48,784 bases of DNA, taken from NCBI GenBank assembly GCA_964467035.1, contig CAYXNX010000006.1, forward strand, positions 1 through 48,784, in the 5' to 3' direction. How positions within the stretch are numbered: position 1 is the stretch's first letter; each line of letters opens with the position of its first letter. Of the stretch, positions 1-48,784 are shown one piece after another. The notes under the pieces were generated by a model that was not told where the DNA came from, ran no database searches, and saw only the letters and a program-made list of their open reading frames with translations. Source of the DNA: Candidatus Woesearchaeota archaeon (GTDB taxonomy: Archaea; Nanobdellota; Nanobdellia; Pacearchaeales; GW2011-AR1). A program made the position numbers and the translations under genes.

Positions 1-13
1 TTGTTTTGACGCA

Positions 14-54
14 GGTTAGAGTTTTTAACTCTAGCCCGAATCCTATCTCGGGCA
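14..54 (+). other. Hairpin (14-36) followed by an isolated tRNA 3'-end segment (37-54)
   Basis: GGTTAGAG-TTTTTAA-CTCTAGCC stem-loop, then CGAAT-CCTAT-CTCGGGC-A, which parses as T-loop end, T-stem 3' strand, acceptor 3' strand and discriminator. The cognate tRNA body is not in the window. Confidence 0.6.
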
Positions 55-97
55 TATTTTGAGATTTGAAATAGATTATTTGCTTTTTTTAAGAATA

Positions 98-112
98 TAA
101 AAAACTTTAAAA
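98..112 (+). promoter_or_regulatory. Putative BRE/TATA promoter of tRNA-Gly
   Basis: A-run followed by TTTAAAA (106-112), about 30 nt upstream of the mature tRNA 5' end. Confidence 0.5.
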
Positions 113-139
113 CCTTTGTAAATTAAATTATAATTAGGC

Positions 140-210
140 GCGTGGGTAGTTCAGTGGCAGAATAACTGGCTTCCAACCAGTTGACCCGGGTTCGAATCCC
201 GGCCCGCGCA
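140..210 (+). tRNA. tRNA-Gly(TCC), intronless, CCA not encoded
   Basis: Acceptor GCGTGGG/CCCGCGC plus A; D arm TAGTTCAGTGGCAGAAT; anticodon arm ACTGG-CTTCCAA-CCAGT; T arm CCGGG-TTCGAAT-CCCGG. Confidence 0.97.
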
Positions 211-382
211 TAATTCGATTCGAACCCTTCGAATCCCTTGATTGGCCAAGCATGGACGATCTAGGTTGGATTTTTAATCCAGCCGGCCCGCGCATAATTC
301 GATTCGAACCCTTCGAATCCCTTGATTGGCCAAGCATGGACGATCTAGGTTGGATTTTTAATCCAGCCGGCCCGCGCATAAT
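199..382 (+). repeat. 84-bp tandem repeat (2 full units plus 16 bp) anchored on the tRNA-Gly 3' end
   Basis: CCGGCCCGCGCATAAT at 199, 283 and 367; the two intervening 68-bp segments are identical. Confidence 0.95.
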
Positions 383-437
383 ATACTGCGGTTTTCATAA
401 TCTTTTTAAATTGCTTTTGGTAACTTATATCATTAAG

Positions 438-1322
438 ATGAATAAAGAAAAATTTTCCAATTTTTATAATAAGTATTACAAGCTTTTCTTAATTGTAATG
501 TTGGTTTTATTTTTCGCAGGTATTTTGTATTTGGGTTGGTTTTTTCAACAAAATGGAGATATAATAAAAAAAGATATTTCTTTAACAGGCGGAACATCTA
601 TCCAAGTAAATGAAAAAACAAATATCCAAGAATTGCAAAATACTCTTTCAAAAGAATTTGAAGAATTTTCTATTAGAGAAATTTCTGATTTACTAACTGG
701 TGAGCAAATCGGTTTTGTTGTTGAGTCTTCTGCTGACCCCGAAATATTAAAATCTTTTTTAGAAAACTATTTAGAAATAGAACTAACTTCTGAAAATAGT
801 TCTGTAGAATTTACAGGTTCTACATTAAGCGGTAGTTTTTACAATCAACTTAGATTTGCAATTATTTTAGCATTTATCTTTATGGCTTTAGTTGTATTTT
901 TTATTTTCAAATCTTTTATTCCAAGTATTGCGGTAATTTTTGCAGCTTTTTCCGATATAGTTTTGACAATTTCTACAATAAATTTATTGGGAATAAAAAT
1001 GTCTACCGCAGGAATTGTAGCTATTTTGATGTTAATAGGTTATTCAGTGGATACAGATATTTTGCTTACCGCAAGAACATTAAAAAGAAGGGGTTCTTCA
1101 ATCAACTCAAGAATTTTCGGAGCATTTAAAACAGGAATTACAATGTCTTTAACTTCTTTATTAGTTGTTATTGCAGGTTTAATTATCACCTCTTCATTTT
1201 CAAAAATATTTGAACAAATCTTTACAATCCTAACAATTGGTTTAATATTTGATATTGCAAATACTTGGTTAGGGAATGCTTCAATAATTAAATGGTATGC
1301 TTACAAAAAAGGTTTAGACTAA
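438..1322 (+). CDS. secF: Protein translocase subunit SecF
   Basis: ISLTGGT and GYSVDTDIL motifs, six TM segments, adjacent to secD. Start moved to ATG 438 because the ORF-track extension only reads through the tRNA repeat. Confidence 0.93.
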   Translation: MNKEKFSNFYNKYYKLFLIVMLVLFFAGILYLGWFFQQNGDIIKKDISLTGGTSIQVNEKTNIQELQNTLSKEFEEFSIREISDLLTGEQIGFVVESSADPEILKSFLENYLEIELTSENSSVEFTGSTLSGSFYNQLRFAIILAFIFMALVVFFIFKSFIPSIAVIFAAFSDIVLTISTINLLGIKMSTAGIVAILMLIGYSVDTDILLTARTLKRRGSSINSRIFGAFKTGITMSLTSLLVVIAGLIITSSFSKIFEQIFTILTIGLIFDIANTWLGNASIIKWYAYKKGLD

Positions 1323-28084: not shown

Positions 28085-30091
28085 TTAAAGACTGCTCCAC
28101 TCAGAATCGTTTGGGGTTAATGCTTTATTGTAAATCTTCAAGTCATCAATTCCTCCATGGAAGTTAACTCCTACTGTAAAAAAATTCTCTGTAGGTGCAA
28201 TTTGTCCACTGAATTGGGATTCTGAACTAGCTTCACCATCTAAATAAATCTTAATTTTGGAACCATCATATGTTGCAACAACCTGTGTCCATTCTCTTGC
28301 TGGCAAATTTTCAGGATTAGTAACTGTAGTTCGTCCCCTAGACCCTCCCCCCATTACTTGGAAGATTAAATTTCCTTCTTCGTTAAAGCCTAACCAATAA
28401 CCTTTATTTGCTGCCGAGTGAGATTTTTTCACTAAAGAAACACTTTTTTCACCACTAGCTTGATTCCTTGTTGTTGGTCTTACTTTAAAAGAAACTGTTA
28501 TCTCGTTTGTGTCATCTACATTCAAAAAATCACTTTCGCTTCCCCCTGGAATAAGTATGTAGCTATCACTATCTCCATAATAATGCTTATCCCCTCCTGT
28601 AGGTCCAGAAAGTATTGACACACCATCTCCATCCATATATCTTTCAGTTTCTGATGCAGTGTTGAAGTCCCAGTCTAGGAGTAATTGATCTTCACCCCCC
28701 TCATCACTATCACTTGCATCATCACTATCACTTGCATCATCACCAGTTGTTTCTGTTTCATCCTCATCGCTGTCAAAATCATCTCCATCTTCATCGTAAA
28801 CACACTTTCCTTGAGAACACTTCATTTCTTTGCTATTATATTCCATCGTTCTACAATCAAATACTTCAGCATTAGCCCTGCTTTGACTTGCACAAGAATA
28901 TTCCAATAGGTGGGAATCTCCCAAACAGTGATCTCTTAGACTTTCACTAAATCCAGAGGATAGTTCTATATCTACCTGAGATTCTTCTTTATAAGGATTT
29001 CTTCCGGATCTTCCTCCATCTCCATCTGTACATGAATCTCCTTCGCACAAACCAGTATTTTCATCACATCCTATTTCGCAATTACTTTCGCTTTTGACAT
29101 AGGGTTTATTTTTTTGTAAAAAGTCCTGTACATCATTTTCTTCTGATCTATCCAAAATCAAGTCGTCTTCATCAACATCTCCATCTCCATCTAAATCAAC
29201 TTTGCTATCTATTGTGCAAGTATAGGTGATCGATTTATCTCCCCAAGCGCAACGGTCTTCTTTTACTCCTTCACTTCCATCAATTAATTGATAACGCAAG
29301 GTTTTACCTCTTTTTGCACAAGTTATTGGTTCGATATCACAATAACAAGAGTTAATCTTTGTTTCTTTCACACTCTTCTGACCAGAAGGATTAATATCAT
29401 AATCGACTTCTACATCCTCACAAACAACTTCTCCTGGACACTCATACTCTAAAGGTTCTTCATTTGTTTCAGTTCCATCAGAATTACAAGATGTTTCAAT
29501 TATTGTGTTTCCATCTCGTGTGTCTCCTTCAATTGAAGCTTCGCCATTTTCATACCTTGATAAGGTATATCCTGGCGTAAAAAATTCTTCAGTTGTTTTA
29601 GTATTTTCTAAGTCGTCACTATCTTCACAAGAAACTGTGTTTCCTGGAGCACAATATCCTGCAGTTCGCGTATCCCCAAAAAGATTTATCCTCTTGGTTT
29701 TACATTTGCTCCCTGGATCATATGAGGAACAGCTAACTTCTTGAGACCTAGGCATATATCTATCAGCAATAATCCAACGATTCCATTTCTTATAGAAATA
29801 TTCCGTCAAAACATCGTCATCTTCACATATATCTGCTTTTATTATAGTCCTAGCATCATCGGAGATGTACTGGATTCCTCCAGCATCCTCTACATTTATT
29901 TCTTCGTCACTATCACTATCACTATCCCTTACCTGATCAGTAGTTCTCCTATCAAGCAAATCCTCATGATCTCCTATCTCTCCTGAAACTCTTCCAGTAA
30001 TTCCTGAGTTATCAAAAGGCCAAATTGCAGAAACTAAAGACATTGTTAAAACTAAAGTAATCATCAAAACTGTTAATTGTATTTTCTTCAT
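28085..30091 (-). CDS. Secreted Cys/Asp-rich surface protein with C-terminal LamG (concanavalin-like) domain
   Basis: Signal peptide, ITGRV motif, CEDSD/CTDGDGG...EYSC modules, DLDGDGDVDEDD loop, WTQVVATYDG..IYLDG..FHGGIDDLKIYNKAL; GGAGGTGA SD before ATG 30091. Confidence 0.85.
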   Translation of the reverse strand: MKKIQLTVLMITLVLTMSLVSAIWPFDNSGITGRVSGEIGDHEDLLDRRTTDQVRDSDSDSDEEINVEDAGGIQYISDDARTIIKADICEDDDVLTEYFYKKWNRWIIADRYMPRSQEVSCSSYDPGSKCKTKRINLFGDTRTAGYCAPGNTVSCEDSDDLENTKTTEEFFTPGYTLSRYENGEASIEGDTRDGNTIIETSCNSDGTETNEEPLEYECPGEVVCEDVEVDYDINPSGQKSVKETKINSCYCDIEPITCAKRGKTLRYQLIDGSEGVKEDRCAWGDKSITYTCTIDSKVDLDGDGDVDEDDLILDRSEENDVQDFLQKNKPYVKSESNCEIGCDENTGLCEGDSCTDGDGGRSGRNPYKEESQVDIELSSGFSESLRDHCLGDSHLLEYSCASQSRANAEVFDCRTMEYNSKEMKCSQGKCVYDEDGDDFDSDEDETETTGDDASDSDDASDSDEGGEDQLLLDWDFNTASETERYMDGDGVSILSGPTGGDKHYYGDSDSYILIPGGSESDFLNVDDTNEITVSFKVRPTTRNQASGEKSVSLVKKSHSAANKGYWLGFNEEGNLIFQVMGGGSRGRTTVTNPENLPAREWTQVVATYDGSKIKIYLDGEASSESQFSGQIAPTENFFTVGVNFHGGIDDLKIYNKALTPNDSEWSSL
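28702..28743. repeat. 18-bp intragenic tandem repeat (DDASDS linker)
   Basis: CATCACTATCACTTGCAT x2.3. Confidence 0.85.
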
Positions 30092-35398: not shown

Positions 35399-35890
35399 TT
35401 ATATATTTGAATTTACCTTTTCAATTACTTTTTGAACATTTTCTTTTAAATGCTTTCCTTTAATTCTTTCATCAGTTGGAAATGCCTTCTCACTATGAGG
35501 TACTTCAAATCCTGAATCAATAATTCCCTTTAATACACTATATACTCTCCCCCCATGCATATTTGCCTGAAGTCCCAAATCCAAAACAGCTTTTGTTTCT
35601 TTTGTTTTTTCTTTTAACAATTTGCCGAATAATTTTCCAGTAAGGTATGAAGCAGGAACTGATTTTAAACTTCCCTTCAAATCTTCAGACCATCCGTGTT
35701 TTAAAAGTTCTTTTGAACTAATGCCTAAAATAATTTTGTCTTTTGATTCTTCACTTATTGCAAGTTGAACTATCACATAATTATCTGTTTTTCTTACAAT
35801 TATCCTCGGAATTTCTGATTTTAATAAATCCAATCTTCTCTTATAACTTGTTTTTCTTTCCTGTTTTCTTTTCTTTTGTGTTTTTCCCAT
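35399..35890 (-). CDS. rpl18: 50S ribosomal protein uL18
   Basis: KTSYKRRL.LLKS, SVPASYLTG and LDLG motifs. Confidence 0.95.
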   Translation of the reverse strand: MGKTQKKRKQERKTSYKRRLDLLKSEIPRIIVRKTDNYVIVQLAISEESKDKIILGISSKELLKHGWSEDLKGSLKSVPASYLTGKLFGKLLKEKTKETKAVLDLGLQANMHGGRVYSVLKGIIDSGFEVPHSEKAFPTDERIKGKHLKENVQKVIEKVNSNI

Positions 35891-35957
35891 TTATGCTCCT
35901 ATTTCCTGTTTTCTTTTCTTTTGTGTTTTTCCCATTTATGCTCCTATTTCCTGTTTT
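35857..35957. repeat. 45-bp tandem duplication at the rpl19e-rpl18 junction
   Basis: TTTCCTGTTTT at 35857, 35902 and 35947; the duplicated unit spans the stop/start junction. Confidence 0.9.
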
Positions 35958-36334
35958 AGGTTTCTTTTACTTTTATAAACTTTATTTCTAATTTTTTTTC
36001 TTTTCTCCCTATAATCCTCTCCAGTAATTTTATCTTGTTTTTTCAATTCTTTTAAGTATTGCCTTAATTTTCTAACTAATTTAACATACTCTTGTTTTCT
36101 TTTTTTTACCTTAACTTTTATTTTTCCAACCCTTCTTCTAGTTTTTCGTTTAACCTGTTTTTTTCTTCCACTAGGTTCTTTAATAGAAATTGCTCCACTT
36201 TCTTTCAAATCTCTTATATCTTGTTTTGTAATTGCTTCTTTAATTTCATCTAATCTGTCTTTATCAAACTGGATTTTTTCTTTTCCCACTTTCAAAGTCT
36301 TTGATGCTAATTCCTTTTTCTTTGCTAAATTCAT
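35936..36334 (-). CDS. rpl19e: 50S ribosomal protein eL19
   Basis: AITKQDIRDL and RKLR.YL motifs; operon order. Confidence 0.94.
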   Translation of the reverse strand: MNLAKKKELASKTLKVGKEKIQFDKDRLDEIKEAITKQDIRDLKESGAISIKEPSGRKKQVKRKTRRRVGKIKVKVKKRKQEYVKLVRKLRQYLKELKKQDKITGEDYREKRKKIRNKVYKSKRNLKQEIGA

Positions 36335-36759: not shown

Positions 36760-37301
36760 TATAGTTTCCTCCCTGCTTTTTGAGTAATATAAATTCCATC
36801 TTCAAATTTTCTTTTATCTTTTCCAACAACTTTTGTGCATTTTTCCAAATTTGCAGCCATCTGCCCTACAATTTCTTTGTTGTGGGATTTGATAGTTATA
36901 TCACTTCCTCCAATTTCTACCTCACTTCCTTCCAAAATTTGACATTTCCTTGGTTTTTTCTCTCCCAGAAAACCCTTTATAATAATTTCTTTTTCTTTTT
37001 TTTCAACAGTGATAGGGAAATGGACATATTCTACAACCAATTTATATTCAAATCCTTTTGTTAATCCTTCTAAAATATTTTTCAAATGAGCTTTAATTGT
37101 TCCAATCATTTTTGATTCTCTTCTTGTTGCCTTTTTGCTTTCAACAACTATTTCCTTGTTTTCAACTTTCAAAGAGATATTTGTTAGATTAAATTTTTTT
37201 TCAATTTTCTTTTCTCCAGCTTTAGCTATAACTGTTTCATGATTTACCTCTACTTCAACTCCTTCTGGAATTTCTATTTTTTCAATTATGTCTTTTTTCA
37301 T
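36759..37301 (-). CDS. rpl6: 50S ribosomal protein uL6
   Basis: IPEGV, HFPI, FLGEK and KDKRKFEDGIYI motifs. Confidence 0.96.
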   Translation of the reverse strand: MKKDIIEKIEIPEGVEVEVNHETVIAKAGEKKIEKKFNLTNISLKVENKEIVVESKKATRRESKMIGTIKAHLKNILEGLTKGFEYKLVVEYVHFPITVEKKEKEIIIKGFLGEKKPRKCQILEGSEVEIGGSDITIKSHNKEIVGQMAANLEKCTKVVGKDKRKFEDGIYITQKAGRKL

Positions 37302-48478: not shown

Positions 48479-48634
48479 TTTCCACAAAGGTCCTAAATTT
48501 TTAATCAACTCTAACTTCTTGGACAAATTTCTCGCTTTTAATAAATCAAAGAATGTCTAAAATTTTATATTCTTAATTTGGGTATTTTTTTATTAATAAT
48601 TTGCAATATCTTTGTTCTAAATGCTTTTAGTAAG

Positions 48635-48784
48635 ATAAAACCGCCACCGCCCGGAATCGAATCGTGCTAGGAAATTCTTGAAACGCACTAGTTCGCTTCC
48701 TCCCATAAAATAAAATAAAACCGCCACCGCCCGGAATCGAATCGTGCTAGGAAATTCTTGAAACGCACTAGTTCGCTTCCTCCC
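48635..48784 (-). repeat. 80-bp tandem repeat carrying a tRNA 3'-end copy (runs off the window end)
   Basis: Identical units at 48641 and 48721; the minus strand reads TTCGATT-CCGGG-CGGTGGC-G (T-loop, T-stem, acceptor strand, discriminator G, Asn-like) followed by a T-rich tract. Confidence 0.88.

Follow-up and report, generated by a model that had tools for sequence, protein, structure and literature searches.

The window analysed here is the whole of contig C6, 48,784 nucleotides, from a very small and AT-rich archaeal genome with intron-bearing tRNA genes (761,617 bases on 19 contigs, 87% complete, GC 0.29-0.33). Near its start, on the plus strand, lies an intact tRNA-Gly(UCC) gene without an encoded CCA (140-210, called by ARAGORN and matched by Rfam RF00005 with 71.7 bits); the whole-genome tRNA list has no other gene for this isoacceptor. 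About 30 nt upstream of its position 1 is an A/T-rich box (101-114, plus strand) that is a putative archaeal BRE/TATA promoter of the gene; G008, the closest relative, 83% identical over window positions 102-212, possesses an equal box at an equal distance from its own tRNA-Gly(UCC). The 84-bp tandem repeat that the first-pass annotation reported at the end of the tRNA is real: Tandem Repeats Finder places it at 199-382, with a period of 84, 2.2 copies, 100% matches, 0 indels and a score of 368. It consists of three plus-strand copies of a 16-nt sequence, at 199-214 and 283-298 (by direct reading and Tandem Repeats Finder) and at 367-382, arranged around two 68-nt inserts on the same strand, at 215-282 and 299-366, that are 100% identical. 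Twelve of the 16 nt are the last 12 nt of the tRNA, comprising the 3' strand of the T-stem, the 3' strand of the acceptor stem and the discriminator, and the remaining four, TAAT, are common with the flank beyond the last copy. The repeated unit starts one base past the tRNA discriminator, on the same strand. Unique flank follows the third copy, with the promoter and start of secF, whose ATG at 438 is set by comparison with G008. Two open reading frames over the array, at 134-379 (minus strand) and 252-1322 (plus strand), were dropped because the repeat itself creates them and because SecF begins at 438, as in G008.

Each insert is predicted to fold into three hairpins, at 217-235, 240-261 and 264-284 in insert 1 and at 301-319, 324-345 and 348-368 in insert 2. 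The first, GATTCGAA-CCC-TTCGAATC at 217-235, is perfect, and both of its arms are related to the T-loop/T-stem of tRNA-Gly(UCC): the left arm matches it perfectly over 11 nt in antisense and the right arm over 10 nt in sense, the right arm plus CC being equal to window positions 191-200 within the tRNA. The palindrome TTGGCCAA lies at 243-250 of insert 1, and the third hairpin (264-284) has 9 bp and a T5 loop, its last two pairs using the next copy of the repeat. The fold has a free energy of -26.7 kcal/mol and a z-score of -2.3, and the array has a GC content of 0.50-0.54, compared with 0.19-0.30 in the flanks. All of these parts (the three copies of the tRNA 3' end around identical inserts, the first hairpin with its extension into a tRNA match, the palindrome, the further hairpin and the GC-rich composition) had been recognised in the first pass, and they stand. 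Several familiar explanations of a structured repeat at a tRNA do not apply. A match to the SpF41 small RNA reaches 32.8 bits, below the gathering score of 52, and consists of the tRNA plus a hairpin. A bulge-helix-bulge intron or split tRNA was rejected by inspection, the tRNA-Gly(UCC) being intact without splicing; junctions of that kind lie in two 3-nt bulges with a 4-bp helix between them, whereas the fold of the Gly(UCC) unit places its junction (282/283) inside hairpin 3, and the family-A consensus described below has its junction within the closing helix. A CRISPR-like array was rejected on two counts: the 87%-complete genome has no match to PF01867 (Cas1), and the two inserts are identical.

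The first-pass annotation had allowed that the locus might hold a single insert or be a scaffolding error. The array does lie 140-382 nt from the end of its contig, less than 400 nt from the start, and elsewhere in the genome arrays are interrupted by scaffold gaps or coincide with contig ends, as would be expected if the tandem copy number were an artefact of assembly. We regard that as extremely improbable. In an independent assembly, the Logan contigs (k=31) of run X1, which is possibly the source sample so that the data are not independent, the unit-to-unit junction 269-312 is present at a depth of 8.6, about the single-copy level, and the insert piece 283-382 at 17.9, about twice that of the unique flank 353-1000 (9.29). 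These depths fit two inserts, albeit weakly because contig depth is not the same as copy number. The contigs of runs X2, X3 and X5 cover only 376-744 or are tRNA pieces of other organisms, and are uninformative about the array. Similar arrays are found inside long contigs of other genomes, which also speaks against an artefact.

Both ends of the window are themselves broken within tRNA-linked modules. Positions 1-61 (plus strand) contain what the contig end has left of another module, its 3' part, in the order second hairpin arm, GCAG, third hairpin and tRNA-tail copy; covariance model R1, built from the module family A described below, matches them with 28.4 bits (E 1e-4) over model positions 32-91, the 5' side being cut. 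Contig C13 begins with the other half of this module (39.9 bits with R1), and the reverse complement of the C13 start overlaps window positions 1-28 exactly (28 nt); in run X1 an alternative continuation is seen as a loose end at position 55. The tail copy in 1-61 fits no assembled tRNA. Relatives possess the gene order Leu(TAG)-Arg(CCT)-Gly(UCC), and the tRNA-Arg(CCT) expected by synteny was probably lost in the gap between C6 and C13. At the far end, on the minus strand, 48631-48784 is an array of an 80-nt unit (x1.9; Tandem Repeats Finder) carrying the 3' end of tRNA-Ser(GGA), with tail copies at 48642 and 48722. The tRNA-Ser(GGA) gene is at the start of contig C1, which blast links to this array; the C1 start also carries a 72-nt x3.8 array of the 5' end of the same tRNA. 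Across the genome, 12/38 contig ends have a tRNA gene or a tRNA-end copy no more than 400 nt away, and several arrays contain 100-N scaffold gaps. The arrays are a main cause of the fragmentation of such genomes and of tRNA genes missing from bins, and their tail copies can be mis-called as tRNA fragments or as the att sites of islands.

How common are such modules at other tRNA genes? Among the 31 tRNAs of this genome with at least 70 nt of assembled trailer, 12 carry 3' modules with one to three tail copies each, a tail copy being a recurrence of the last 10 nt of the tRNA within 450 nt downstream. An upstream copy of the first 10 nt, which defines a 5' module, is carried by 4/34 tRNAs. These census counts come from ARAGORN runs on one sequence at a time, since runs on multi-sequence FASTA files under-report tRNAs (0 genes in C6). 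According to Tandem Repeats Finder the units are 53-199 nt long and present in 1.9-6.3 copies, mostly at 98-100% identity. The modules are bounded by direct copies of the 3' segment of their own tRNA (11-31 tRNA nt across the arrays, the left edge ranging over the whole T-arm) or, in other arrays, of its 5' segment, and enclose gene-less inserts of 35-190 nt. The 5' arrays are the mirror image of the 3' arrays: that of tRNA-Lys(CUU) has six units, each opening with the first 13 nt of the tRNA, and is flanked by a promoter-like box on one side and the sole Lys(CUU) gene on the other. Two tandem repeats have no adjacent called tRNA, at C4 51426-51666 and at window 35857-35985 (71 nt x3.4; 45 nt x2.2-2.8). 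The object first seen as a single tRNA-Gly repeat is a genome-wide, lineage-restricted family that includes 5'-end versions, and this points to mobile or recombination-driven modules.

Among relatives the distribution is patchy. A congener assembled in five contigs, G010, has tail copies at 10/32 tRNAs; G022, a near-complete genome from another genus of the family, has them at 0/34, and G059, an order-level relative from another family, at 0/25. At tRNA-Gly(UCC) loci a tail copy occurs in 0/8 relatives, a comparison made, like those of the metagenome loci and the G010 inserts below, with the multi-sequence ARAGORN runs that under-report tRNAs. In G008 only about 27 nt separate tRNA-Gly(UCC) from secF, an empty site, and no relative of the Gly(UCC) unit was found in 60 related genomes, nor a second copy of its insert elsewhere in its own genome. 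From these three observations (no unit among the 60 relatives, no tail copy at the eight loci, no insert in G008), sequence comparison dates the Gly(UCC) module of the window as a recent, strain-level gain. An order-wide count of the module pattern (12/401 genomes) is barely above a reversed-pattern control for single matches, and only tRNA-adjacent matches were used; a scan with a 14-base pattern, which gave 120 chance matches in unrelated bacteria, was excluded from all counts.

The modules have a common anatomy. A short distance beyond the tRNA lies a stretch that is antisense to the 5' strand of the T-stem and the T-loop of that same tRNA, and it tracks the T-loop variant of each tRNA. An antisense stretch of at least 8 nt is present in 7/12 module-bearing trailers of this genome and 5/10 of G010, compared with 3/19 and 2/22, respectively, of the trailers without tail copies, and with 5/982 shuffled trailers. 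With this stretch the single strand, on folding, recreates the T-loop segment of the target gene in double-stranded, helical form. Internal parts are also held in common between different tRNAs. The Gly(GCC) and Val(TAC) arrays have 53-55 nt in common at 100% identity, the Arg(GCG) array, which contains two module types, shares 28-31 nt with these Gly(GCC)/Val(TAC) parts, and the Lys(CUU) and Ile(GAU) 5' arrays have a common insert; within this genome such parts occur nowhere beyond tRNA arrays or contig ends. In G010 another type of insert is common to two tRNAs. Module families differ between congeners, and identical parts are found at different tRNAs within one genome. Further families, of other sequence and common to different tRNAs and species of the genus, were seen at G010 loci L199/L200 and at L216 together with G009 loci L023/L040. 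Module GC content is 0.31-0.50 in a genome of 0.30.

The best characterised group, family A, comprises 17 modules from five genera and metagenomes, from which model R1 was built. All eight metagenome matches to its motif are immediately preceded by a tRNA and followed by a tail copy (8/8, in multi-sequence ARAGORN runs). The 17 modules align to a gap-free four-way junction whose closing helix is formed by the antisense stretch pairing with the T-loop part of the tail copy. Pairing is kept in 97.1% of cells, compared with 87.8% in shuffles, none of which reaches the observed value (0/500), and falls to 50% or less when the partners are slid; 7/22 pairs have changes on both sides. The family-A fold is supported by covariation, and on the tRNA-sense strand, as seen in the 39 G-T cells compared with 4 A-C cells. 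A tandem U-G/G-U is kept at the base of hairpin 2, where all five observed changes still pair, and the sense fold is more stable than the antisense fold in 11/11 family-A-type units. Thirteen of the 17 modules directly follow an intact tRNA, and in all 13 a perfect partner of 9-10 nt is found 15-26 nt upstream; the remaining four follow a tail copy or a gap. The Gly(UCC) units of the window (211-378) do not belong to family A, scoring at most 5.5 bits with R1 and the filters off, and the Gly(GCC) unit is a borderline match (20.3 bits, E 0.009). Between the Gly(UCC) and Gly(GCC) units there are paired changes, one pair in hairpin 1 and three in hairpin 3, and it is through its build and this likeness that the Gly(UCC) unit appears tied to the tRNA-module family. 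On a metagenome contig, L188, two adjacent modules differ by paired changes in the inner helix of hairpin 3, with the helix kept; these neighbours either diverged under a constraint on the fold or were acquired separately.

A fold conserved on the tRNA-sense strand, with its tandem U-G/G-U maintained, is what would be expected of an RNA, and the main rival explanation is that the modules are functional small RNAs cut from the tRNA transcript, equivalent in archaea to RttR and RrA/B/F of E. coli. On this view the tail copy would be a borrowed signal for 3'-end processing or stability, the antisense stretch would close a tRNA-like multi-branch structure, and arrays would raise the dose. The superior stability of the sense fold in every family-A-type unit is compatible with this. 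A T-run of at least 4, resembling a terminator, comes right after 3/21 module-bearing tRNAs, compared with 19/40 of those without modules, and this scarcity makes co-transcription of modules with the tRNA plausible. The tRNA-Lys(CUU) 5' array should be transcribed, since it sits between the promoter-like box and the only gene for that tRNA, and units of like build in E. coli are transcribed and processed, as described in PMC8144298. Other observations make the small-RNA explanation somewhat unlikely. A host RNA would not be expected to be so patchy as to be missing from every tRNA of two genomes within one order, and no genome other than this one was found to contain the Gly(UCC) unit. The difference in families between congeners, combined with identical parts across tRNAs, looks like spread. 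A T-loop duplex has no obvious role in an RNA, some modules come after T-runs of 5-8, and no Rfam family matches.

Passive debris is a second rival: each module would be the scar of a large element cut down, in this case to 68 nt, or a trailer duplicated by slippage, with neither mobility nor function. Partial copies of tRNAs beside integrated elements are ordinary, those elements measuring 9-23 kb in PMC9897764. Precedents are provided by tycheposons, in which successive integrations are split by partial tRNAs and form tandem junctions (10.1101/2020.12.28.424599), and by CIMEs, which PMC5704250 describes as decayed att-bounded elements. The archaeal arrays resemble both in the regenerated tRNA, the displaced copy of its 3' part, the inserts in a row and the empty site in G008; moreover, the two identical inserts in the window are as they would be after a recent slip between 16-nt repeats, and the Gly(UCC) insert has no relative elsewhere. 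Unlike integrase-borne elements, however, the archaeal inserts are tiny and gene-less, have no integrase in or beside them, recur in the same form at different tRNAs, possess a conserved and strand-specific fold, and have 5'-end versions. Debris would require one and the same deletion product to have formed separately at each of many tRNAs, but entire inserts can be aligned across tRNAs. Nor would debris be expected to have a GC content above that of the genome, to keep its pairing by compensatory changes across genera, or to carry an antisense stretch that tracks the T-loop variant of each tRNA, and this genome contains no distant tail copies of the kind that would bound large elements. We therefore consider debris quite unlikely.

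The explanation that we prefer, while placing it a little short of probable, is that the array is made of small modules, non-coding and either mobile or recombination-driven, which home to the ends of tRNA genes and multiply by unequal exchange. The patchy distribution, the strain-level gain, the identical parts shared between tRNAs and the mixed arrays argue for spread between tRNA ends, and the same four facts argue against both a conserved host RNA and independent scars. Site-specific recombination would bring a module in at the T-arm or the 3' end, probably through one of the tyrosine recombinases of the genome acting on a folded single strand that mimics its target. Insertion would regenerate the tRNA and displace a copy of its tail, and unequal exchange between tail copies could then double or delete modules, which would explain the identical tandem copies. 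In the window, a module would have been gained once the lineage had separated from the nearest sampled relative, and would then have doubled a single time; it probably shares a transcript with the tRNA, but would owe its presence to spread rather than to an RNA function. In integron attC sites a single strand folds into the recombination-site helix, with strand-specific features other than Watson-Crick pairs, and folded single strands are the recombining form of both attC sites and the CTX phage attP. By analogy, the strand-specific fold of the modules, with its copy of the T-loop duplex of the target, suggests a single-stranded intermediate of the attC or CTX attP kind. An 84-bp double-stranded circle is physically implausible, and the intermediate would, we conjecture, have to be single-stranded or intermolecular. 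Several observations count against mobile modules: as set out below, no recombinase is linked to an array and searches gave no autonomous or extrachromosomal form; the Gly(UCC) unit itself has no second copy; there is no single cut rule across families, with 11-31 tRNA nt copied and the edge moving across the T-arm; the conserved tandem U-G/G-U is more typical of RNA than of DNA; and E. coli units of like build yield a stable RNA, annotated RttR.

Which enzyme might carry out such a reaction? The genome has three intact tyrosine recombinases and one broken one (PF00589), on contigs C13, C4, C5 and C7. None is linked to any tRNA array and none is in the window, and a comparison of their sequences provides a rough grouping only, the wrong frame having been taken at two loci. 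Array-bearing genomes have 2-7 PF00589 matches each, compared with 1 in each of two array-free genomes, a count resting on six related genomes. No serine recombinase was found in the genome. The C4 recombinase belongs to a separate cassette array: eight cores of the form TTAA-N3-4-CTGTTA lie at C4 29.5-36.4 kb, upstream of the recombinase gene (36789-37280), and a Y1 (IS200-type) transposase gene between two of them (29700-30065) is itself a cassette. This Xer-type array was rejected as a source of the tRNA arrays, since the core motif is absent from all of them. No module parts are found near the Y1 transposase gene. A retro-origin was set aside because the only RVT_1 gene, on C2, belongs to a diversity-generating retroelement with template and variable repeats. 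That retroelement (L227, C2 about 91.4-94.0 kb) has a lectin-fold-like target gene ending in the variable repeat and a region with the reverse transcriptase open reading frame that holds the template repeat, with Asn in place of the varied residues; just upstream ARAGORN calls an odd 83-nt 'tRNA'. The first-pass annotation had suggested comparing the insert with viral and DPANN contigs, and there are no matches in the viral contigs or the 60 related genomes. Three module patterns likewise gave 0 matches in viral contigs, and a search for an autonomous or extrachromosomal form gave 0 matches in phages, plasmids, the 60 relatives and the rest of the genome.

The archaeal modules are like the attC arrays and ORF-less cassettes of integrons in their short units (about 55-140 nt), their folded strand and their position beside a fixed site. 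They differ in having no IntI beside the arrays, and the window contains no recombinase gene; no attC core motifs, judged against the consensus, were seen on reading the Gly(UCC) unit. No prior description of such modules in DPANN archaea was found in the full-text literature, subscription journals aside.

The closest parallel is with the tRNA-linked repeats (TLRs) of E. coli, of which there are 22 at ten loci, one to five at each; known since 1978, most have neither a known function nor a known origin, and three bind Hfq and CsrA, according to PMC8144298. The first-pass annotation had named the E. coli tyrT repeats as an analogue, and the likeness holds for the architecture and not for the family: RtT (Rfam RF00391) has no match in window positions 1-700 at E<=10, whereas the same library gives four matches of 133-137 bits at the E. 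coli tyrT locus. At tyrT of K-12, the one TLR locus compared, the tail copy begins inside the T-loop and the annotation is of a stable RNA, RttR. The 178-nt unit contains a 22-nt stretch (19/22 matching) antisense to the acceptor/T-arm region of the tRNA, and its minimum-energy fold is a multi-branch structure closed by this stretch and the tail copy. The tyrT units therefore resemble the archaeal modules in all three respects: tail copy, antisense stretch and a multi-branch fold closed by both. Like a TLR, the Gly(UCC) unit lies directly downstream of a tRNA on the same strand, and the archaeal genome, too, has few units per locus at several loci. The tail identity of the Gly(UCC) array is 12 nt exact in 3 copies, compared with 18-19 bp in E. 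coli TLRs, and its unit is 84 nt, compared with 178 nt at tyrT. Unlike E. coli, the archaeal genome has 5'-end arrays as well, has about one-third of its tRNA genes affected, has internal parts swapped between tRNAs, and has tRNA genes without an encoded CCA.

The TLR build, a tail copy and an antisense stretch that together close a multi-branch fold, is now found in a minimal archaeal genome, and the archaeal modules add to it the involvement of a third of the tRNA genes, a covariation-backed fold, the exchange of parts and the mirror-image 5' versions. This suggests that stable-RNA genes may be subject to a general process and that the TLRs are not an oddity of enterobacteria; the many natural variants on offer could be used for testing such a process. 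A bolder conjecture, which we rate as unlikely, is that archaeal modules and E. coli TLRs form one cross-domain class of tiny non-coding elements that would home to the ends of stable-RNA genes through a folded helix copying the T-arm, in which the tRNA tail would provide one strand, with attC- or CTX-like insertion by a host tyrosine recombinase and later co-option of the arrays as small RNAs. If true, it would supply a mechanism for the 45-year-old puzzle of the E. coli TLRs.
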